From a virus (lineage: Duplodnaviria; Heunggongvirae; Uroviricota; Caudoviricetes): 31,608 nucleotides of DNA. Each line of letters opens with the position of its first letter. Within the stretch, counting starts at the first letter, position 1. The notes under the pieces were generated by a model that saw nothing but the letters and a program-made list of their open reading frames with translations, ran no database searches and was not told the DNA's origin. The DNA is taken from positions 347,305-378,912 of IMG/VR virus record IMGVR_UViG_3300031949_000001. One strand, given 5' to 3'. Shown here in pieces: positions 13,380-30,268 of this stretch. The translations under genes and the position numbers were made by a program.

Positions 13380-13448
13380 GAGGAGATTTCGGTAATATAA
13401 TGAATCGATACCTCTTCACTCGGGGCGTCCGCCTTCGATCTGAGTAGT

Positions 13449-13477
13449 ATTATACATGAAGTTTGTTTGTTGGTCAA
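13449..13477 (-). promoter_or_regulatory. sigma70-type promoter
   Basis: TTGACC-17-TATAAT; spacer contains AACAAACTTCA. Confidence 0.8.
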
Positions 13478-13478
13478 G

Positions 13479-13663
13479 TGGCGCGCTGCAAAGGATTTTC
13501 GCCTCTAATGATACACAAGCCTCTCATCCGTTCGGATTCCTGAACTGTACCTAATTAACTAGATTAGGATTTTCGCTTATCCGGTAGTCATCCGGTATCA
13601 GCTACCGCCCTTATTCTCCGTATGGTTTGCTTGCACCAGTTTTAAAAGTTAAACTAGCAGCGC
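13479..13663 (-). ncRNA. tRNA-like RNA with a large structured domain replacing the anticodon loop
   Basis: Perfect 7-bp acceptor GCGCTGC/GCAGCGC plus G-CCA; U8A9; D stem GTTT/AAAC; T arm AGAGG-CGAAAAT-CCTTT. Confidence 0.8.
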
Positions 13664-13688
13664 AGGGTGGATATTACGCGTAGATTGC

Positions 13689-13889
13689 TTACTTGTCAAT
13701 AGCCTCCAGCCAATATTCAAACCCACCAACACCAAAACCGGATTGTGATACCCGAAAACCTTGAACGTTGGCAACTTGAAAAGCAATCTTTTGTTTTTCC
13801 AGCATGTGTGCCAAAGATAATATTGCTTTAGAATCACCAACGAGAGTTTGGTTGCCAGTACGCCAATCGGTGTAAGAAATCGAATACAT
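13689..13889 (-). CDS. hypothetical protein
   Basis: GGAG SD before ATG 13889. Confidence 0.7.
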   Translation of the reverse strand: MYSISYTDWRTGNQTLVGDSKAILSLAHMLEKQKIAFQVANVQGFRVSQSGFGVGGFEYWLEAIDK

Positions 13890-13936
13890 TTTAATCTCCG
13901 AAAAGAACAACTTTCTGTGAATTACTCAATTTATTG

Positions 13937-13965
13937 ATTTTACACGAAATTAGTTTGAAAGTCAA
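13937..13965 (-). promoter_or_regulatory. sigma70-type promoter
   Basis: TTGACT-17-TAAAAT. Confidence 0.75.
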
Positions 13966-14402
13966 GCGACCAAGACCTCGATAGTACCAGCTTCGAATTT
14001 GTACGAAACTCTGAGAACAGTCATATCCACGTCAGGAAGAAGACTAAGATAAACAAACTCTCCCACACGAGGAATTGGATTATTGGAATTATGCCAATAT
14101 TGTGCCATGACGGTTTGAGTGCCGGCTTGGATAATCTGCACGCACAGACAAGTCTTTCGATCCAATTTTAGCGGTACACTCATTTTTTCAGCATCTTCAA
14201 AAGTTGATGGAGCATCGATCTCGGCGTCATCAAGATACAAATCACCCGATTCCAACATCGATATCGCTTCAGACAAATAGCAATCCTGTTCGTCTTGGGG
14301 TAGATCGTCCCAAATGAAACGCGAAGGGTAGAGTCCTACCCTTCGGTCCCATTCAAAGTTCTTATGCGCGTTCAAGAGCGCCTGTTCGTTTAATGTACTC
14401 AT
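13962..14402 (-). CDS. hypothetical protein
   Basis: 146-aa coupled ORF. Confidence 0.75.
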   Translation of the reverse strand: MSTLNEQALLNAHKNFEWDRRVGLYPSRFIWDDLPQDEQDCYLSEAISMLESGDLYLDDAEIDAPSTFEDAEKMSVPLKLDRKTCLCVQIIQAGTQTVMAQYWHNSNNPIPRVGEFVYLSLLPDVDMTVLRVSYKFEAGTIEVLVA

Positions 14403-14644
14403 TCTCCTGGGTCTCCTCGATACGGATTCTTTACCATAACGTCTAGGTTACCGTAAACATTTGCGTCAATCACGTGCAACTCGACCATTGCCAGAACAAC
14501 GTCTAGCTCATGCTGACGCTCTTCGGCAGTGTATGCACGCTTACCGTAATGGTCGAATAAAAGAGTGTTGACTGCCTCGACAACAGCGTTAGTAGCGTCG
14601 TCAATAGTGTCATTAAATTGCGCATCCGACATTGTGATATTCAT
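14399..14644 (-). CDS. hypothetical protein
   Basis: 81-aa coupled ORF. Confidence 0.7.
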   Translation of the reverse strand: MNITMSDAQFNDTIDDATNAVVEAVNTLLFDHYGKRAYTAEERQHELDVVLAMVELHVIDANVYGNLDVMVKNPYRGDPGE

Positions 14645-14645
14645 T

Positions 14646-15146
14646 TTACTGCTTCCATTTGTTTTGAACTAAAGATGCGTATACTACAGCACTTGCGCGT
14701 TTCATATCAAGTTTTTCGGTAAAAAGCTTAATCAAGGCAGGATTATCCGCCTTTGGATTGTCTTTGTAAATCTGAATCGCTCGTTCTTTCAAAGAAACTT
14801 TGTTGCCATCTTCGTCCATCGAAGGAGGGATGCTTTTCGGGATACCTAGCATCACCATCATTTGATCTGTTTTGCCTCGGGCGATTCTAACACATTGGTC
14901 AAAATCTACAGTGTTGCCATCTACAATATAAGAGGCAACCGCCGACAAGAAGTAGCGAACAAGTAACTCACCTTCTTTACGAGTATCGAAATCAACATTC
15001 AATCCAAGTTCATGAAAGAACATCGCAAAATCGTAGACGCCATACTTGGCTTCATTTTTTAAATAATCTGAACTGGTATAGGCAGCAAGTTTTGACGAGA
15101 TATCAATCCCGTACTGGTCTAGGAGGTCGATTGGTTGTGAATTCAT
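14646..15146 (-). CDS. hypothetical protein with putative C-terminal helical DNA-binding domain
   Basis: KERAIQIY...IKLFTEKLDMKRASAVVY resembles 1346-1648. Confidence 0.7.
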   Translation of the reverse strand: MNSQPIDLLDQYGIDISSKLAAYTSSDYLKNEAKYGVYDFAMFFHELGLNVDFDTRKEGELLVRYFLSAVASYIVDGNTVDFDQCVRIARGKTDQMMVMLGIPKSIPPSMDEDGNKVSLKERAIQIYKDNPKADNPALIKLFTEKLDMKRASAVVYASLVQNKWKQ

Positions 15147-15258
15147 TAGCGGTTTCGCTCGTTAAGGTTACAATTAGGAAACCGACAACACCAATTAGTA
15201 CCATGATGCGACCAATCGCACCGATAAAGAAGAAAAGTGGTGTGCTAAATAGTTTCAT
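15103..15258 (-). CDS. small membrane protein (51 aa)
   Basis: MKLFSTPLFFFIGAIGRIMVLIGVVGFLIVTL...; ATG lies 6 nt after a -10 box. Confidence 0.55.
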   Translation of the reverse strand: MKLFSTPLFFFIGAIGRIMVLIGVVGFLIVTLTSETANEFTTNRPPRPVRD

Positions 15259-15264
15259 ATCGTC

Positions 15265-15346
15265 ATAATACCGGATTTAAAAGGTGCTGTCAACTTCGTC
15301 TATATGCCGAATTATCCTTGATTTTGCTCGTAACTAAGCGTATAAT
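15265..15346. promoter_or_regulatory. divergent sigma70 promoters
   Basis: Minus strand TTGACA-17-TATTAT (15265-15293); plus strand TTGATT-17-TATAAT (15318-15346). Confidence 0.7.
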
Positions 15347-15356
15347 AGAAATTATT

Positions 15357-15824
15357 ATGGAAATAAAATTCTTTTTCGATCTGGAAGAAACGCTAATCAC
15401 CGATTGGCACGACCCTCTGTTGTGTAATGTTCAGAAGGTCAAGAAGTGGATAGCCGACAATGGCGTGAAGCAAGCGGGCATCTTCTCTTGGGCTGTTTGG
15501 AATCAAGCCGACGTTGACGTATTCAACAAAACCTTGAAGACATGGCTTGAAGGCGTCTTTGAAATCGAATTCATTGAAGTTATTACAAAGAACGATGCTG
15601 TTAGGGCAGTCTGCTTCACTAAGAGTCTTCGGTGTGTTGACATGACTGATGTTATAGATATTGCTAGCATCTTCGGTAAGCATGGCATCTTTACCGAATG
15701 GTGTCTTGCTACCAAAAGAGATTGTATCTGCGTCCTTTTGGATGATGTGGTTCCTGATCGCATCATAACAGATAAAGTAACTGGTGTCACTGTCAAGCTA
15801 GTAAACGTCGATAGACTAAGTTGA
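15357..15824 (+). CDS. HAD-superfamily-like hydrolase/phosphatase
   Basis: FFFDLEETL (DxDxT variant), IFS motif II and LLDD motif IV. Confidence 0.6.
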   Translation: MEIKFFFDLEETLITDWHDPLLCNVQKVKKWIADNGVKQAGIFSWAVWNQADVDVFNKTLKTWLEGVFEIEFIEVITKNDAVRAVCFTKSLRCVDMTDVIDIASIFGKHGIFTEWCLATKRDCICVLLDDVVPDRIITDKVTGVTVKLVNVDRLS

Positions 15825-15849
15825 CAACCGAACAATGTTGCTATATACT
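15821..15849 (+). promoter_or_regulatory. sigma70-type promoter for ncRNA
   Basis: TTGACA-17-TATACT; spacer contains GAACAATGTT. Confidence 0.85.
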
Positions 15850-15870
15850 ATGTTGCATAGTCTGTATCGG

Positions 15871-16022
15871 GGAGCGCTAGCTTAAGTGTTGAACTGATAC
15901 CATCACCCTCTGATGAATCACGTGAGAACATTGGTGGTGGGTAGTAGCATATTCAACCGTAAAGCACCGGCAACCCGGTTATGCTGGCGGATTAGCTACC
16001 GGGAATCCAGCACGCTTCGCCA
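15871..16022 (+). ncRNA. tRNA-like RNA with D-loop and T-loop insertions and a 4-nt anticodon loop
   Basis: Acceptor GGAGCG/CGCTTC plus G-CCA; TAGCTTAA start; D stem GCTT/AAGC; ACCGG-CAAC-CCGGT; T stem GCTGG/CCAGC. Confidence 0.8.
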
Positions 16023-16061
16023 ATACAGATTGTACGTTTAATTTTTATAAGGAATTTTTAA

Positions 16062-16391
16062 GTGAGCGAACCTATCTCTGGTATCGAAAAATATCATGCA
16101 TGGCTCAATACTCTTGAGCCGCGCATCTCTGAAATCCTGGTCGCACTGGACGATGAATATTGTACCGGGCGCATCGGAAGCAACCAACGCTTCGTTGGTG
16201 ACCTAGAATTTCGTCTTTTGGCTGTCGCCAAAGATGGAAAAGACTTCATAGAAATAATGAAGATCGTCCAACCTGACCGTGATGCTTTTGAAGCAGAAGA
16301 GCACGCAAGGGTCATTTGGAATGTTGCTATCAACTATAGTAACATGAAAAACCGCGAGTTACTAACCATGATTACAACAAGGAGCAAGTGA
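16062..16391 (+). CDS. hypothetical protein
   Basis: TAAGGA SD; GTG start. Confidence 0.75.
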   Translation: MSEPISGIEKYHAWLNTLEPRISEILVALDDEYCTGRIGSNQRFVGDLEFRLLAVAKDGKDFIEIMKIVQPDRDAFEAEEHARVIWNVAINYSNMKNRELLTMITTRSK

Positions 16392-16397
16392 TTTATC

Positions 16398-16715
16398 ATG
16401 TCATACAAAGACACGAAGATTTTCAGGAAAGATTTTGGTGATGGTGGACGGGAAGCACGGCTGGAACTCCAGAGAATTGCCGACCGTAAAGAACGAAGGT
16501 TTAACCGTGGGGACACTGTTGACACAACTGTTGATTCTCCGACGAACGTTGACACAGATGTAATGGAATGCAAAGGCTGTGGCTACATTGGCTATAAGGA
16601 TGAAGATTTTCTTCCTGCATCTGTGATGGGTGACGATGGTCACTACGATACAGGACATGAGTGCCCGGTGTGCAACAGCAATAATTGCGTTCCATATATT
16701 GAAGAGGATTTTTAA
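16398..16715 (+). CDS. zinc-ribbon protein
   Basis: CKGC...CPVC; AAGGAG SD. Confidence 0.7.
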   Translation: MSYKDTKIFRKDFGDGGREARLELQRIADRKERRFNRGDTVDTTVDSPTNVDTDVMECKGCGYIGYKDEDFLPASVMGDDGHYDTGHECPVCNSNNCVPYIEEDF

Positions 16716-16716
16716 C

Positions 16717-16884
16717 ATGGGTAGGCTAGTCCCGTTACCGCCTTGGGCTACCAAGGAACAAATTGAAGAACGAATACGTTACTATCGTAATCTCAGTTAT
16801 ATCATACTCGGCAGCGTAATTGGTAGTTGTATTTTCTTAATTACCGTTGCTATCATGGTGTTCAAACCATTGATTTTCCACTGA
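16717..16884 (+). CDS. small membrane protein
   Basis: GAGGA SD; C-terminal transmembrane segment. Confidence 0.65.
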   Translation: MGRLVPLPPWATKEQIEERIRYYRNLSYIILGSVIGSCIFLITVAIMVFKPLIFH

Positions 16885-16984
16885 TCTATTTTAGCAGAAT
16901 CGGGGAACTTTCGCAAGTTAAAGTTGGTCAAACCAATGTCGGTGGGAATTTATAAACCCTCATAATATTTATAATATACACACC

Positions 16985-17013
16985 TTGACAGTCAGTGATT
17001 TTTTTGGCATAAT
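16985..17013 (+). promoter_or_regulatory. sigma70-type promoter
   Basis: TTGACA-17-CATAAT. Confidence 0.75.
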
Positions 17014-17048
17014 AGGGCTTGTTCAACTTCAATTCGAGATTAAAGCTC

Positions 17049-17405
17049 ATGGCTACGAACGTAATTGTTGGATACTCCAGCATTTCTCTCAAGGTTTTTC
17101 GCGATTTCGTCGGAGATACTACAGGAGCGACACAAATCCTGACTGTCGAGGAATCTCGTAGCCTCGCAGGACAACTTCTTGACGCTGCTACTCAACTCGA
17201 AATTGAATCAATGAGTCGAGAAGGTGGCAATAAAGATATTTGGATTCCCGCCAGTGGTGGTAAAGAAACTCCATTTTTTTCGCGCTCAGGGCATCGTCTG
17301 CTTTATTGTTGGAACCCATCGAAAGGTAAACATGCGTATTTGGATTTGGGTAAGGACATGATCCTGACAGATGAAGAAGCGAATCAATGCCTGGGGTTTA
17401 TCTGA
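17049..17405 (+). CDS. hypothetical protein
   Basis: ORF downstream of the promoter; C-terminal GGKETPF...LLYCWNP...YLDL segment. Confidence 0.75.
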   Translation: MATNVIVGYSSISLKVFRDFVGDTTGATQILTVEESRSLAGQLLDAATQLEIESMSREGGNKDIWIPASGGKETPFFSRSGHRLLYCWNPSKGKHAYLDLGKDMILTDEEANQCLGFI

Positions 17406-17638
17406 TGTATCTCGGACAACGAATAGAGCGCTATGTAAGGCGCTATTTCGAAAAACACAATACGATAGATTACTATCCCTTTCCGACTGTGAAACAAGTT
17501 GCACGCGGTTTGAAGGTATCGATCACCAAATGTGTTGATGAGATTGAGGCTTGTGGTGAACTGCCGTTGATGTTGACATCATATTTTACATATGTTCCGG
17601 AGCCGATGTCTGCTCATTTCGTGGAGATTTGTGAATGA
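17405..17638 (+). CDS. small putative HTH protein
   Basis: FPTVKQVARGLKVS; TGATG coupling. Confidence 0.6.
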   Translation: MYLGQRIERYVRRYFEKHNTIDYYPFPTVKQVARGLKVSITKCVDEIEACGELPLMLTSYFTYVPEPMSAHFVEICE

Positions 17639-17799
17639 AAAGGTTAACATTCGAAGAATGGCTTGATGAACTTGAAAAAGTCGCCGATGACGCTGGCTAT
17701 ATTCTACCTCCAGGTGGTTTGTTACCCTGGGAAATTGCTTTATGGCGAGAAATGTATGACAAAGGGTTGACACCCCGAAAAGCTTGGAACCAAGCATAA
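17635..17799 (+). CDS. small hypothetical protein (54 aa)
   Basis: MKRLTFEEW...WREMYDKGLTPRKAW; GGAG SD; ATGA overlap. Confidence 0.65.
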   Translation: MKRLTFEEWLDELEKVADDAGYILPPGGLLPWEIALWREMYDKGLTPRKAWNQA

Positions 17800-17823
17800 A
17801 ATATAACTATAAGAAGAATAAAA

Positions 17824-18285
17824 ATGAAACACAATATTCAGTCCCTCAGTTGGACTCAAGTCCGCTCGCTCATCAATCACTACGAACCATCTGAACAAAA
17901 GATTTCCGAGGTCTTCGGAATTACTCCAAAACAAATCAAACATCTTGATATTTTCAAGCCTGATCCAGTGTTTGATGTTACGCCTTATTATCCTATTTTC
18001 GAAGACAATTCCATAAGCATTGCAAATCCTTCTGGCGTCGGTCGGGTTGACTCGTATCTCAGCAAAGCCAAAAAACCTCGGGGTCGTCCTGGTAACAAAA
18101 TTATAACGGCTTTCAGGAATATACCGAATGAGGCTATCGATGTCAAGGCTTTTGCAGCAAAATGGTCAGTCTCTGTCTCGGTGCTCCGACAATCATTAAG
18201 ATTCGACAAAACCGGGTTGACGGGGAAAGTTCATGTTCGTTTATCAAAAGACGGAATACTCGTTATTTGGAGAGATAATAAATAA
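17824..18285 (+). CDS. putative DNA-binding protein
   Basis: AT-hook-like KKPRGRPG between two HTH-like segments. Confidence 0.6.
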   Translation: MKHNIQSLSWTQVRSLINHYEPSEQKISEVFGITPKQIKHLDIFKPDPVFDVTPYYPIFEDNSISIANPSGVGRVDSYLSKAKKPRGRPGNKIITAFRNIPNEAIDVKAFAAKWSVSVSVLRQSLRFDKTGLTGKVHVRLSKDGILVIWRDNK

Positions 18286-18303
18286 GTAAAAGGAGGACTC
18301 ATC

Positions 18304-18621
18304 TTGAGAAATAATCTTCGTGCCGATGAGATAGTTGACTCGCTTTATAGAGCATGGATTGAGCATAACTTACAGAAACTAGCAGTAGATTTCAAAGACC
18401 GCTTCGGAGCACCGAAGGACGGAAGAACGGTTTATACTCAAAAAGAATTTCATGACTTTTGTATTGCTCAAGCGCTCACTGGATTCAAAGTGCTTGATCC
18501 AGAACTATTCCGAGCCATCCTCGTTGACCATCTAATCAACACCCATTACAGCCTGAACCGTGTCAAGGTAAGCCTGGAAGAGTGCGGATTGGGTGCATTC
18601 AAGAAGGATGAATCAAACTAA
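18304..18621 (+). CDS. hypothetical protein
   Basis: AAGGAGG SD; TTG start. Confidence 0.75.
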   Translation: MRNNLRADEIVDSLYRAWIEHNLQKLAVDFKDRFGAPKDGRTVYTQKEFHDFCIAQALTGFKVLDPELFRAILVDHLINTHYSLNRVKVSLEECGLGAFKKDESN

Positions 18622-18945
18622 TTCTTTTCTCTTTTGTTCCCAATATATTTTAGCCTTTACTCTACGCATGAACTGACTTATACGAGCGCGATCTCGATTA
18701 CATTCATGGCATGCTAAAACGTTATAATATATCTCTCCGCTTGAGCGTTTGTAGTTGATACGCCTTGGGTCTTTCTTTTCATAAAGATGGTCCAGCGTCG
18801 CCGCATCTAGTGAAAGTTTTGAGCCGGGTTTATATTCTGGATACATTTTCCCTTCTGCTGAGGGAAGTGTTGTCAGGACACCACACCAATGGCAATGCGG
18901 CTCGCGACGCCAAAGTAGCCATCTGGCTTGAGGAATGTTTTTCAT
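18613..18945 (-). CDS. HNH endonuclease
   Basis: CHWC...TLDHL...NVLACHECN. Confidence 0.85.
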   Translation of the reverse strand: MKNIPQARWLLWRREPHCHWCGVLTTLPSAEGKMYPEYKPGSKLSLDAATLDHLYEKKDPRRINYKRSSGEIYYNVLACHECNRDRARISQFMRRVKAKIYWEQKRKELV

Positions 18946-18975
18946 GATAAATACAATCAACAAAAGGAATCAGTT

Positions 18976-19272
18976 ATGAAGCTTATAGAGTTTTGGGATA
19001 ATCCCACCAACATGGCAGACGATACCCCCGAAGCGAGTTTGTATAATGGTCTAGGAAGCCTTGAGGCACGTGAGGCGTTCAAGTCTGGCATGGAGAGCCA
19101 GCAGGACGGCACACCCAAGGATAGAAATCCTTATTCACATGGCGAACGTGCGACCGCATGGCTTCAAGGCTGGAAGACCTCCTATTTTAAGAAGTATGGT
19201 AAAAAAGATGTATCTTCTCCAACATTTCAAACACAGCATCCATCCTCGGATTCAGCCAGTTCCAACGGCTAA
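18976..19272 (+). CDS. ribosome modulation factor (Rmf)-like fold protein
   Basis: AFKSG...G...NPY...RATAWLQGW matches the RMF pattern; AAGGA SD; GATAAATA upstream. Confidence 0.6.
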   Translation: MKLIEFWDNPTNMADDTPEASLYNGLGSLEAREAFKSGMESQQDGTPKDRNPYSHGERATAWLQGWKTSYFKKYGKKDVSSPTFQTQHPSSDSASSNG

Positions 19273-19458
19273 TATCGACACTATCCAGTTCTATCTAGCG
19301 AAAGGTCTAGCACTATTCCCTTTACTCAAAAATTCCTATCACGAACAGTTATACAATCTTCAACGGAAAGGATTAATTTCTCTAACCCCCTCTTTTTTAC
19401 TTGAATGTTACAGTCTTCGGGTCCAGACTAAAACCATCGAGAGACTTAAAAAAGCTGC

Positions 19459-19797
19459 TTAATCGTTTTGATGACTACGAAGCCATTTCACAATTTGAGG
19501 CGTTGTCCATCCGTATTCATGAGACAATTCGTTAAGGAATGTGAATAGATCAGTTTCTTCACCAGCTTCATCTAGGACGAGTTGTTTGAAAGCTAAGAAG
19601 GCGGCGAACCTAACATCGACACTCAATGAAAACATAGCATCTCCGTATTGACCCAAAAAAGCATGTCCTTTAGCGCAGCATGCCTCAGGAGAAGAGCGCC
19701 GTTTACCTCGAAAATATCCCCATCCATCCACCATCTTAGGACACATTTTCCAACCTTTCTCCATCGCATCAGCGAGTAACTTAACATCTTTTCTCAT
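19459..19797 (-). CDS. hypothetical protein, paralog of 30261-30644
   Basis: Shared KG..CP, CC...HA.LG and NELS..Y.W...Q...WL.SH.ND motifs. Confidence 0.8.
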   Translation of the reverse strand: MRKDVKLLADAMEKGWKMCPKMVDGWGYFRGKRRSSPEACCAKGHAFLGQYGDAMFSLSVDVRFAAFLAFKQLVLDEAGEETDLFTFLNELSHEYGWTTPQIVKWLRSHQND

Positions 19798-19808
19798 TTT
19801 ACACTCCT

Positions 19809-20102
19809 TTAATAATCATAATCGCGTATGAATTGCGATTCATTAATATAAAAACGCAAAATTTCATCCTCGGTCGCCGCTTCATAATCAGCGTCAGTTG
19901 ATTTAATAAGATGAACCCATTTTCTAGCTTCTTCTAAAAACCTTTCTACGTCATCCAGGAAAGGGGTTACTGCATCGTATACCACAACATGGTGCCAGCC
20001 GCTTTTGTAATCCTTAAAGACTTGATTTTTTATTTCAATACGCATTTTAATCGTATCGTCTTCAATACTAGTAATATCTACATAACTGTTATATCGTGGC
20101 AT
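19809..20102 (-). CDS. hypothetical protein
   Basis: AAGGAAG SD before ATG 20102. Confidence 0.7.
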   Translation of the reverse strand: MPRYNSYVDITSIEDDTIKMRIEIKNQVFKDYKSGWHHVVVYDAVTPFLDDVERFLEEARKWVHLIKSTDADYEAATEDEILRFYINESQFIRDYDY

Positions 20103-20113
20103 TTTCTTCTTCC

Positions 20114-20302
20114 TTAATAATGTGCCCAACAACCTGAACTTGAATTCCAATGACAGCCTAACTCGTCCAACTTGGTAGCGAGTTCCCCTTCTCTTTCAAA
20201 GCACGGAATAAAAATAATATCATGATCAGAATCGAAATATTCATTTTCCATTCCTGCTTCGACTAAAAGAGCACAAACCTTAACCATATCTTTAATTTGC
20301 AT
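20114..20302 (-). CDS. hypothetical protein
   Basis: SD present; in operon. Confidence 0.7.
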   Translation of the reverse strand: MQIKDMVKVCALLVEAGMENEYFDSDHDIIFIPCFEREGELATKLDELGCHWNSSSGCWAHY

Positions 20303-20313
20303 TTTTCTTCTTC

Positions 20314-20580
20314 CTATCTAAATTCGGGACGACGATCACCATCATACCGCATAATCCAACAAGTAGCATCATTATATTTTTTAGGAAGTCTCTCGGCAAT
20401 ACCTGTCTGCCGGTCGAATATCAAAGTGCATTGACGCATATCTTCAATATCATCCCATTTCGCAATTATTTCATCATTAGTAACAGCTTCGACAGCGACA
20501 GTGATATCGATAATTGTGTAAATTGAAAAGGCGAGCTTAATATACAACGTATCGCCTTTCAGAACACCCATAAAGTTCAT
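20314..20580 (-). CDS. hypothetical protein
   Basis: ATGA overlap. Confidence 0.7.
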   Translation of the reverse strand: MNFMGVLKGDTLYIKLAFSIYTIIDITVAVEAVTNDEIIAKWDDIEDMRQCTLIFDRQTGIAERLPKKYNDATCWIMRYDGDRRPEFR

Positions 20581-21044
20581 GATTGTGCATCTTTACTCAG
20601 CGGCAACACATTAGGATCAGGCTTTCCGAATTCAATGAAAGGGGTTTCATCCGCGTTTTTTTCAAACAATTTTGAATTCATAACCGCAACCACGGACAAA
20701 GCTTCAACAATCGTGTTGATGATTGTGTATTCCACCTTTTGCGGCTCGTAGAGGCGAGACAGAATGCCTTCAGGATTTTGACGTTGCCAAATTCTTTCTA
20801 GAATTTTGCGATAGTTTGCTTCGTGGACCTTACAATACCGGGTCGCTTCGTCAAATGTATGCATCCACAGATTAAAACAATCACTTAGATTAATGTGTTG
20901 GGGGTTTCCACCACAGTAATTAGCGACCAGCTTTTTCGTGTCTTCGATCAGATCACCACGCTTATACCAACACTTAGCGTAAAGCCAGAAGTGTGGGTAC
21001 TTACTTGAATGTGTTGCCATTTTCGTAAATCTCCGAGTTGACAT
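20577..21044 (-). CDS. hypothetical protein
   Basis: ORF in operon; the true start may be 21020 (GGAG SD). Confidence 0.75.
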   Translation of the reverse strand: MSTRRFTKMATHSSKYPHFWLYAKCWYKRGDLIEDTKKLVANYCGGNPQHINLSDCFNLWMHTFDEATRYCKVHEANYRKILERIWQRQNPEGILSRLYEPQKVEYTIINTIVEALSVVAVMNSKLFEKNADETPFIEFGKPDPNVLPLSKDAQS

Positions 21045-21294
21045 TTGTTAGAACTTCTTTCCATTGTTCCTGTGGCACTTCTTCGCCTTTCAGGTATACA
21101 TGGAGGAGTGTGAATCGACAGCCTTCATTGTACTGACGTTCCCATACATAGTCAACACAAACACTACCATGGACTTGAATACGTTCAGGTAAATCATAGC
21201 CAGTAGCATGGACAACACGGATTGCTCTCCTCTCAAATTCAGAGGCAACTCGGGCAGAAACCCGTTGGCTGTATAGTTGTTCATCAAGAGTCAT
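21001..21294 (-). CDS. hypothetical protein
   Basis: Coupled ORF. Confidence 0.65.
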   Translation of the reverse strand: MTLDEQLYSQRVSARVASEFERRAIRVVHATGYDLPERIQVHGSVCVDYVWERQYNEGCRFTLLHVYLKGEEVPQEQWKEVLTNVNSEIYENGNTFK

Positions 21295-21499
21295 TTTTAT
21301 CACTTTCCCAATAACCACGGGTTGATGGTGTAACTCCATTGAGTGCTAACATTACATCATTGATTGCGGCTCGGTAGCCACCAGCATATCCTTCACCCGC
21401 TAATCCCCTCGCATACATCCCACCAATGGAATTGAGGGCAATTTCGGTGTTAACTTTTCTTAACACTTTAGATAATTTTCTTTTGATACCATGAGCCAT
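21284..21499 (-). CDS. hypothetical protein
   Basis: AAGGA SD. Confidence 0.7.
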   Translation of the reverse strand: MAHGIKRKLSKVLRKVNTEIALNSIGGMYARGLAGEGYAGGYRAAINDVMLALNGVTPSTRGYWESDKNDS

Positions 21500-21660
21500 T
21501 ATATTTCCTTGATTTCACATCCTATGTGCGGTGTTTTGTCCGCTTTGATGCCTGTAGCAGTTTCAAACAATTTATCAGCATCAAGAATCCCCTCAGCTTC
21601 ACATTCAAAAATCAATGTGTCGCCGTTTTTGTGGTTCCAGTAAAAAAACTTGAGATTCAT
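21499..21660 (-). CDS. small hypothetical protein (53 aa)
   Basis: TAAGGA SD; MNLKFFYWNHKNGDTLIFECEAEG...; TAATG coupling. Confidence 0.65.
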   Translation of the reverse strand: MNLKFFYWNHKNGDTLIFECEAEGILDADKLFETATGIKADKTPHIGCEIKEI

Positions 21661-21675
21661 GTTGTTTCCTTAAAT

Positions 21676-21844
21676 TGGGAAGTCGGTGCAAGGGGTTGAA
21701 CCTGCAACATCATTTTTGAGAGGGCGTCCTATTTCATACGTGTGCATCAAAAATGTTGGGATAGTCTGATCCTATTACTCCGTTCACTTATGCATCGGTT
21801 TCCCAACCAATGCACTCACTACAAGTTTCATATATCAACCGACT
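21676..21844 (-). ncRNA. tRNA-like RNA with an expanded interior
   Basis: Perfect acceptor AGTCGGT/ACCGACT followed by TCCCA; T arm GCAGG-TTCAACC-CCTTGC; own promoter. Confidence 0.7.
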
Positions 21845-21851
21845 AAAACGA

Positions 21852-21912
21852 ATTCTACACGTATCAATAGAACAAAGCAAGCCTTGACATGAAGTTTGTT
21901 TGAGCGTATAGT
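21852..21912. promoter_or_regulatory. back-to-back sigma70 promoters driving two ncRNAs
   Basis: Minus strand TTGCTT-17-TAGAAT; plus strand TTGACA-17-TATAGT; both followed by TCGTTTT. Confidence 0.8.
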
Positions 21913-21918
21913 TCGTTT

Positions 21919-22018
21919 TGTCAGGTTAGCAAATCGAAGTTAGATTAAAGAAAGCGCCCGCTTAACGAGACACTGCCGGGATGAAGCGCAAGGCAGGGTA
22001 GTAAACATCCTCCTGACA
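21919..22018 (+). ncRNA. candidate tRNA-like RNA (no encoded CCA)
   Basis: TGTCAGG/CCTGACA closing stem, TAGC start, CCCG/CGGG stem, AGGGT-7nt-ATCCT arm, then a T-run. Confidence 0.5.
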
Positions 22019-22084
22019 ACTTTTTTGATGCCTGTATTGGGCGTTAGTGAATATCCCCTACCCCATCATCGAAAGATGACCGTC

Positions 22085-22119
22085 AGGCTTAATTGAGTAC
22101 TCGAAGCTCAGCCTTTTTT
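22085..22119 (+). terminator. terminator-like hairpin / possible attenuator
   Basis: AGGCT...TGAGT/GCTCA...AGCCT followed by a T-run. Confidence 0.5.
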
Positions 22120-22136
22120 ATTTTTGGAGAAATAAA

Positions 22137-29963: not shown

Positions 29964-30268
29964 TGGACAGCATATTTGTCTCGCATGGTCTACATATTGG
30001 ACGGATGATTTCCGCATCCAAGAAAGCACCTGAAGGACACTTTTGTGTCTGGAATGCAAACGTTATCACTAAGACTCATGGAAAAGTTTGGTTTGGTGAT
30101 CTTAATATAACAAAGGATGCGCCAGTTCTTGAAAAGATAGCTCTTGCTATCGGAGAGCCGATTTACATCCTCCGTGAGAGTGATTGCCGGTTTAACACCG
30201 CTAATGACTCTATTGAAATATTGATTAAAAAAGCCATCTGGCGCACTCAAGGAAACAACAATGCATAA
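29963..30268 (+). CDS. hypothetical protein
   Basis: TAATG coupling; GRMIS.SK...NAN...W.GDL pattern. Confidence 0.75.
   Translation: MDSIFVSHGLHIGRMISASKKAPEGHFCVWNANVITKTHGKVWFGDLNITKDAPVLEKIALAIGEPIYILRESDCRFNTANDSIEILIKKAIWRTQGNNNA

Follow-up and report, generated by a model that had tools for sequence, protein, structure and literature searches.

Stable phage RNAs that do not decode are known from T4, whose RnaC and RnaD (species 1 and 2) undergo processing like that of transfer RNA (tRNA), lie in a tRNA cluster and have no known function. Simple-hairpin early leaders and promoter-bearing mobile cassettes are also familiar, at the RNase III sites of T7 and in the PeSL cassettes of T4-type phages, and the effectors PrrC, RloC and AriB cut anticodon loops. 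The bacterial and phage Y RNAs (YrlA/YrlB) are non-decoding tRNA mimics bound by Ro60/Rsr (Chen et al. 2014, PMC4201824). They carry a T arm and sometimes a 7-bp (base pair) acceptor, their genes share the strand of Ro60 and lie no more than ~4 kb from it, and YrlA of M. smegmatis is cut by RNase P and given CCA (PMC4201824). Phage tRNAs rescue infection from tRNA-cutting defences (PARIS, retron effectors; PMC11464382, PMC11555353), and a non-decoding tRNA-shaped RNA would point to another use of the tRNA fold, as decoy, processing signal or scaffold. Here we analyse four intergenic elements, E1 to E4, in a window of 31,608 nucleotides (nt) (genome 347,305-378,912), the final 31.6 kb of an uncultured jumbo phage of 378,912 bp (an IMG/VR record, completeness 94% by CheckV). 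An earlier note on this DNA had proposed that the four form a dispersed system of anticodon-less tRNA mimics. That claim was partly confirmed: only E1 is tRNA-shaped beyond chance, E3 is borderline, and E2 and E4 look like ordinary folded early-gene leaders. Our tentative reading, held at somewhat less than even confidence, is that E1 is a real RNA built on a tRNA frame within a mixed set of leaders. As an addition to the known non-decoding tRNA-shaped RNAs the finding is partly supported, resting on E1, which is good, and on E3, which is doubtful.

E1 and its immediate surroundings, in window coordinates, are laid out as follows.

13671..13699, minus strand: E1 promoter, TTGACA-17-TAATAT; a 7-nt spacer, 'ccaccct', puts +1 at the first acceptor base
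13479..13663, minus strand: E1, 185-nt tRNA-shaped RNA, from fold and descriptor
13663-13657 with 13489-13483, minus strand: acceptor GCGCUGC/GCAGCGC, followed by U8A9
within 13479..13663, minus strand: D-like arm GUUU-8 nt-AAAC, with loop AACUUUUA
within 13479..13663, minus strand: anticodon-position stem GGUGCA/UGUAUC around ~115 nt
13506-13490, minus strand: T-position arm AGAGG-CGAAAAU-CCUUU
13482 and 13481-13479, minus strand: G73 and CCA, respectively
13449..13477, minus strand: next promoter, TTGACC-17-TATAAT, one base past the E1 CCA, driving genes from 13379 downwards

Read along the minus strand, the layout is that of an entire cloverleaf, GCGCUGC-UA-GUUU(AACUUUUA)AAAC-U-GGUGCA...[~115 nt]...UGUAUC-AUU-AGAGG(CGAAAAU)CCUUU-GCAGCGC-G-CCA, in which stems of 7, 4, 6 and 5 bp make up 22 pairs with zero mismatches and the T loop has 7 nt. 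Because the branched insert of ~115 nt replaces the anticodon loop, E1 cannot decode. We searched with a descriptor of this design. On the 5' side it asks for a 7-bp acceptor (at most one G-U pair), a 2-nt linker and a 4-bp D stem with a 7-11-nt loop. An anticodon-position stem (5 bp or more) comes next, whatever the insert that it encloses, then a variable region of 3-6 nt and, directly adjoining the acceptor, a 5-bp T stem whose loop has 7-8 nt. The RNA must end in NCCA and be 95-300 nt long in all. The descriptor matched twice in the real genome (E1 and one other site), and the 20 first-order Markov genomes gave 0 matches. We read E1 as tRNA-shaped to a degree beyond chance, yet not tRNA-like in sequence. 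Perfect stems alongside diverged loops argue, we infer, for selection on shape over decay. The sequence GCGAAAAUCCU occurs twice in E1 on the minus strand, in the T-position arm (13490-13506) and in a hairpin of the insert (13600-13625).

Set beside canonical tRNA (RF00005), E1 shares the 7-bp acceptor, U8-A9, the 4-bp D-position stem, the 5-bp T stem with its 7-nt loop, G73 and CCA, and it also shares a directly upstream promoter with some solitary tRNAs of this phage, at least one of which, tRNA-Pro at 312890, lies directly behind a strong promoter. It differs in having ~115 nt for the anticodon loop, no G18G19, no T54-Psi55-C56 and no covariance-model score, and E2 to E4 are further off. 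The elbow bases of tRNA (T loop UUCRANY, D loop GG) are missing from the whole set: E1 has CGAAAAU and AACUUUUA at these positions, E3 has GGUUCAA in an 8-nt loop and no D arm, and E2 and E4 have neither. All 56 tRNAs that ARAGORN called in the genome fall outside the window (0 within it), so the genome has at least 56 tRNA genes; of the 56 called, 53 encode their N73-CCA end (descriptor scan plus end check). Rfam, run on the window at the gathering threshold and at E<=5, returned no matches, so that together the two programs found no tRNA, tmRNA (transfer-messenger RNA) or other Rfam family there. RF00005 alone (gathering cut-off 29 bits), searched over the whole genome at E<=10, gave 62 matches, 0 of them in the window. 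A covariance model that we derived from 29 tRNAs of this phage (CCA included, filters off) recovered a control tRNA at 48.7 bits and did not recover E1 to E4, a weak test for 170-185-nt RNAs as the hit-length limits penalise inserts of >100 nt. By these database and model tests none of E1 to E4 is a tRNA. We also rejected an intron-containing tRNA, since a group I intron would need more length than the inserts have, and a 7-nt loop cannot be restored.

Like tmRNA (RF00023), E1 builds an acceptor and T arm from the two ends of a longer RNA with CCA, and its insert can be read as holding a short frame, GCA-AAC-...-UGA. It differs from tmRNA in that its third pair is G3-C70 and not the G3-U70 needed for alanine charging, in having no GGUUCGA T loop and no pseudoknots, and in its length of 185 nt. 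We rejected a tmRNA identity on the missing G3-U70 and T-loop consensus, together with the negative ARAGORN tmRNA and Rfam searches.

The same genome holds a better-founded case, T0 (genome 7818-7953, minus strand, equal to L011:7818-7953), a true tRNA body in which 69 nt replace the 7-nt anticodon loop and which, with its 62-nt insert, scored 41.8 bits on RF00005. Its promoter (TTGCAA-17-TATACT) places +1 at the acceptor, a ribosome-binding site and a 68-amino-acid (aa) gene follow directly, and in the standard alignment the CCA of T0 is shifted out of register by one base. T0 thus has the early promoter with +1 at the acceptor and the anticodon-loop insert of E1, and the ribosome-binding site and gene that also follow E3; it differs in keeping the full tRNA sequence consensus, where E1 to E4 keep geometry at most. 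A strict T-loop-plus-NCCA descriptor (95-300 nt) had two matches in the real genome, T0 and a tRNA of 103 nt, against 0.025 per simulated genome; without the CCA requirement we estimate, outside the simulations, a chance expectation of ~1-2 per genome. An anticodon loop replaced on a true tRNA body makes our reading of E1 more plausible. The prior for E1 is also raised by a Ro60 homologue in the same genome, a 540-aa Ro60/TROVE-domain protein (genome 319563-321185, minus strand, equal to L012:5564-7186). E1 and T0 together make a concrete, cheap test case.

Several points count against E1 as a tRNA-frame RNA. The descriptor was composed after E1 had been seen, and its other match falls within a 582-aa open reading frame, presumably by chance, so real DNA can yield such a match by chance. 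The fold is unexceptional (z about -1): the best fold pairs the T region otherwise and is 2.6-3.9 kcal/mol more stable than the cloverleaf. Neither the T loop (CGAAAAU) nor the D loop holds any tRNA consensus bases, there being no GG and no UUC. E1 is absent from a syntenic relative, contig L008, which has no room for it. Among GenBank phages (megablast, blastn) there was no DNA-level relative of the phage and no match to the element regions; protein-guided scans of IMG/VR (three single proteins, two alignments) gave nothing useful, and exact-pattern scans of IMG/VR for E1 and E3 gave no matches; a GTDB genome scan for relatives found nothing; and a metagenome scan returned four short contigs, none spanning E1, E3 or E4. 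In these GenBank, IMG/VR, GTDB and metagenome scans, E1, E3 and E4 had no homologue in which covariation or conservation might have supported the reading.

If E1 is real, its own sigma70-type promoter would drive it, and transcription would start (+1) at the first base of the acceptor. Lying between two same-strand gene blocks, it could have its 5' side cut by host RNase P in read-through transcripts, and its 3' end may be trimmed to the encoded G73-CCA by the host tRNA 3'-end pathway. With no GG and UUC elbow bases, it would present an acceptor/T-position coaxial helix with a CCA end. It might then engage proteins that read only the acceptor/T half, such as processing enzymes or toxins of the toxSAS, GNAT, MenT or HEPN type, a role that we consider possible but not quite probable even for a real RNA. 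Equally, its role may be in cis, where it could punctuate the flanking messenger RNAs (mRNAs) in the manner of a tRNA or stabilise them. A synthetic acceptor/T minihelix with CCA suffices as a good substrate of the toxSAS defence toxin FaRel2 (bioRxiv 10.1101/2024.07.05.602228); E1 has only 2 of the 4 FaRel2 determinants.

A wider proposal is that the phage deploys a family of promoter-driven, non-decoding tRNA-frame RNAs (E1, T0, perhaps E3, and others in tRNA regions) as an acceptor-end counter-defence, which we regard as improbable. In such a family the acceptor/T helix with CCA would soak up or misdirect host acceptor-end readers (CapRel, FaRel2, GNAT, MenT, 3'-clipping HEPN nucleases), and the variable inserts could add stability or a second binding partner. 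If true, the phage would have a counter-defence made of RNA that differs from the one already known, in which phages supply decoding tRNAs that resist nucleases.

E1 to E4 (genome 360783-369323) lie among early genes, the nearest tRNA genes being 34 kb upstream or past the window end. Their neighbours are small genes, to none of which Pfam or PHROGs assigned a function. All four elements described in the earlier note exist, they are intergenic and outside any tRNA cluster, none has a 7-nt anticodon loop, and two of them, E1 and E2, encode G-CCA. Each occupies a long intergenic gap directly behind a sigma70-type promoter, so the promoters stand and their count is four where three had been claimed. 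The further claim that all keep acceptor-stem and T-arm geometry holds in full for E1 only; E2, E3 and E4 depart from it. With respect to an in-register acceptor and CCA, E1 has 7/7 pairs; E2 has 6/7, with CC paired to the leader; E3 has 7/7, with a U-CCCA tail; and E4 has 7/7, with no CCA. At the anticodon position E1 has ~115 nt and E2 a CAAC tetraloop, and E3 and E4 are without such an arm.

The terminal stem begins 7 nt past the -10 box in E1, E3 and E4, so the primary transcript would begin at the stem. A same-strand gene follows each of the four, and E2, E3 and a further domain, E5, lead straight into ribosome-binding sites. Fold z-scores against shuffles are -3.1 for E2, -1.0 for E1, -1.0 for E3 and -0.6 for E4; only E2 stands far above its shuffles. 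The geometry common to E1 and E4 and, with an 8-nt loop, to E3 is a 7-bp stem that starts at the promoter +1 and is abutted by a 5-bp hairpin. Of 1034 promoter-like sites 17 have it, whereas displaced control offsets give 11.75. It is not enriched behind promoters but at chance level, which cautions against reading a 7-bp stem, a hairpin and CCA as tRNA mimicry. No sequence or motif is common to all four elements, and we rejected paralogy among them except for the E3/E4 pair. Three of the four proposed mimics fail on geometry, register or homology. We tentatively take E1 to E4, with confidence a little below the midpoint, for a mixed set and not one family: promoter-proximal structured RNAs heading early-gene cassettes, which would be placed in a fast-changing region of the jumbo phage.

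E2 is the best-folded member of the set.

15821..15849, plus strand: E2 promoter, TTGACA-17-TATACT, found at the same position in contigs L008, L009 and L010
15857..16031, plus strand: E2, four-way-junction RNA, leader of gene 16062-16391
15860-15878 with 16013-16030, plus strand: E2 closing helix, 8+2+6 bp with bulges (16 bp, two interruptions)
within 15857..16031, plus strand: arms GCUU..AAGC (with a 70-nt hairpin inside), ACCGG-CAAC-CCGGU and UGCUGG..CCAGCA
16019-16022, plus strand: G-CCA, its CC paired to the 5' leader

The four-way junction that had been described earlier is present both in the best fold and in the centroid (z = -3.1), with a UA linker after the acceptor-like stem. The 'acceptor' consists of 6 bp and a C/A mismatch and extends past a bulge into 10 further pairs with the 5' leader, and the T-like arm has 6 bp and a 19-nt loop. 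A protein search with the 155-aa gene upstream of E2 gave ten relatives, with P0002 to P0010 at 83-53% identity. In L009 and L010 the conserved promoter is followed by an unrelated RNA of 185 nt and then by a 71-aa gene; this RNA (L009:466-650, plus strand, identical in L010) has four hairpins, 19 perfect closing bp, z = -6.05 and no CCA, and in L009 the block of RNA and gene is an insertion between the copies of a duplicated promoter/start, ATGTTGACA. E2 is missing from the syntenic relative L008, which has at the E2 position only a 56-aa gene; the same gene occurs further along in L009. Unrelated content at this position in the relatives places E2 in a variable cassette slot, where the recurring feature is a long closing helix and not a tRNA end. 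As part of our best explanation, E2 is plausibly, if short of probably, a well-folded leader or noncoding RNA of that slot with a coincidental CCA, and its long closing helix may sequester the 5' end.

E3, E4 and E5 lie together around two divergent promoters.

21849..21877, minus strand: E3 promoter, TTGCTT-17-TAGAAT (weak -35 TTGCTT), followed by 'tcgtttt'
21676..21844, minus strand: E3, leader of gene 21660-21499 (minus strand)
21844-21838 with 21687-21681, minus strand: E3 terminal stem AGUCGGU/ACCGACU, perfect 7 bp, then U8
21705-21688, minus strand: E3 arm GCAGG-UUCAACCC-CUUGC abutting the stem, GGUUCAA in an 8-nt loop
3' of the stem, minus strand: E3 tail U-CCCA, then AUUUAAGGAAACAAC-AUG, the CCA one base out of register
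21884..21912, plus strand: E4 promoter, TTGACA-17-TATAGT, followed by 'tcgtttt'
21919..22019, plus strand: E4, stem-closed leader domain UGUCAGG/CCUGACA with hairpin AGGGU-AGUAAAC-AUCCU, no CCA and a U6 run after it
22017..22031, plus strand: motif CAACUUUUUUGAUGC, common to the E3 and E4 leaders
21744..21758, minus strand: E3 copy of the common motif, CAACAUUUUUGAUGC
22026..22125, plus strand: E5, second leader domain before gene 22137, with a terminator-like AGGCU..AGCCU stem and U run

The divergent leaders E3 and E4 are paralogous: both have TTCGTTTT after the -10 box, both have CAAC(A/U)UUUUUGAUGC at about equal distance from the transcription start, and the 'T arm' of E4 aligns with an internal hairpin of E3. 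The T-like arm of E3 is not in its best fold (z = -1.0), and the strict T-loop-plus-NCCA descriptor does not accept E3 because of its 8-nt loop and off-register U-CCCA tail. E3 is possibly a degenerate form of the E1 design, and it may equally well be a long leader of the 21660 (minus-strand) operon. The fold of E4 is unremarkable (z = -0.6) and its tRNA geometry is at chance level only. The U runs after E4 and E5 make an attenuating leader the simpler reading of E4/E5, a paralogue of the E3 leader.

All four, E1 included, could be ordinary structured 5' leaders of early mRNAs (stabilisers that sequester the 5' end, RNase sites or attenuators), their tRNA likeness due to chance. We regard this as a serious possibility, though on balance doubtful. 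It would account for the same-strand gene after every element, for the ribosome-binding sites that E2, E3 and E5 abut, for tRNA models that score none of the four and for the terminator-like U runs of E4/E5, and the equidistance of the E3/E4 motif from the transcription starts is as in regulatory leaders. The chance-level frequency of the common geometry and the second match of the E1 descriptor, in a coding region, fit it too. E1 itself is harder to absorb: it satisfies seven geometric constraints together with an in-register CCA, a combination with 0 matches in the 20 simulated genomes; another promoter stands right after it, so it is not needed as that operon's leader; and T0 is a tRNA-frame RNA at an early-promoter +1 ahead of a gene in the same phage. 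Like the present elements, the leaders and cassettes of large lytic phages put an early promoter and a stable helix in front of small accessory genes, within a hyperplastic region. Those leaders are simple hairpins, unlike E1, E2 and the L009 RNA, which have several branches and a length of 170-185 nt. Against the ~20 or more bp of near-continuous duplex typical of RNase III sites, E2 has 16 bp with two interruptions, the L009 RNA has 19 perfect bp, and E1, E3 and E4 have 7 bp only.

The earlier note had instead taken the four for one dispersed system of anticodon-less mimics, in which the tRNA scaffold gives processing and stability while presenting cargo domains, or in which the RNAs serve as decoys. 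The promoter-then-terminal-stem layout of all four, the G-CCA of E1 and E2, the four-way junction and UA linker of E2, and T0 and other remodelled tRNAs in the same genome speak for such a system, and what stands of the proposal is a non-decoding tRNA-frame RNA in E1. A coherent four-member system is unsupported, since there is no common motif and no tRNA-model match, E4 lacks CCA and its 'T arm' is the homologue of an internal E3 hairpin, the E3 CCA is off register beside an 8-nt loop, the E2 CCA is buried in a helix with unrelated content at its slot in relatives, and E1 and E2 are both missing from the syntenic relative. The elements might conceivably serve as decoys or antitoxins; since PrrC, RloC and AriB require the anticodon loop that is missing here, only acceptor-end enzymes would fit. 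We consider the single system unlikely. T4 RnaC and RnaD, compared here by description only, are likewise phage-encoded and non-decoding; they differ in being co-processed in a tRNA cluster, where E1 to E4 are solitary, promoter-driven and at the head of protein-coding units.

We give little credence to the idea that E1 and E3 were once solitary tRNA genes, which insertions broke and which now decay as functionless pseudogenes carried passively in leaders. The tRNA loop consensus is indeed lost (no D-loop GG, no UUC in the E1 T loop), E3 has one extra base in its T-like loop and a CCA off by one, E1 is missing from L008, and tRNA models fail on both. Neutral decay would not leave the 22 E1 pairs free of mismatches while the loops changed, both elements keep their own promoter with +1 at the stem, and ~190 nt of dead sequence is seldom kept in a tightly packed phage genome.

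It is very unlikely that E1 to E4 are Y-RNA-like partners or substrates of the phage Ro60 (TROVE) protein: the phage does encode the 540-aa protein, and known Y RNAs have paired ends and tRNA-like domains, and E2 and the L009 RNA have long closing helices, but the four lie 39-48 kb from its gene, against ~4 kb for known Y RNAs (PMC4201824), they lack the repeated motifs of a better candidate with a GGUUCAAAUCC T arm directly upstream of that gene, and they have no complete GNCGAAN0-1G. YrlA differs from E1 to E4 in three respects, as both ends of its RNA lie on the anticodon side and not on the acceptor side, it bears the GNCGAAN0-1G motif in the Ro-binding stem and it is near Ro60; the nearest that E1 comes to the motif is GGCGAAAA, in which the final G is missing. 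We rejected a Y RNA identity for E1 to E4 on position and motifs. The candidate beside the TROVE gene is a promoter-driven RNA of ~130 nt directly upstream (L012 ~7583-7452, minus strand); its ends are paired, and its T arm is GAUGGGUUCAAAUCCCAUC. Its motifs AGGAAGUGGU, GUUACUUC and UCUUACGAA recur in a second module. These RNAs are likely phage Y RNAs; E1 has no 8-mers in common with them, and E1 to E4 have none of the repeated motifs.

A class-II tRNA-like gene (L012:7756-7844, minus strand, equal to genome 321755-321843) ends in GCCUUCC-G-CCA and was missed by ARAGORN; it scores 32.4 bits on tRNA-Sec, below the model cut-off, and its anticodon loop is UUUGAAA. Four further tRNA-like genes that ARAGORN missed lie in tRNA clusters, at genome 60373-60469 (plus strand), 253241-253343, 300379-300462 and 300808-300890 (all minus strand); they are 83-103 nt long, have CCA ends and score 23-39 bits on RF00005.

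An identical 16-mer, ACATGAAGTTTGTTTG, lies at window 13454-13469 and 21887-21902 (plus strand), in the spacers of two promoters oriented oppositely with respect to it, and no shuffle of the window produced a single such match. A conserved leader of ~40 nt follows two early promoters, at window 13408-13442 and at L011:5671-5707 (both minus strand), its only two copies in the genome; it has the form CAGAUCGAAGGCG-loop-CGCCCCGAG..GAGAGGUAU, with a hairpin loop of GA in one copy and CAAG in the other. Elsewhere in the window, the intergenic gap at 30060-30260 folds well above shuffles on both strands (z = -2.8 and -2.5) and is the only other strongly structured gap.

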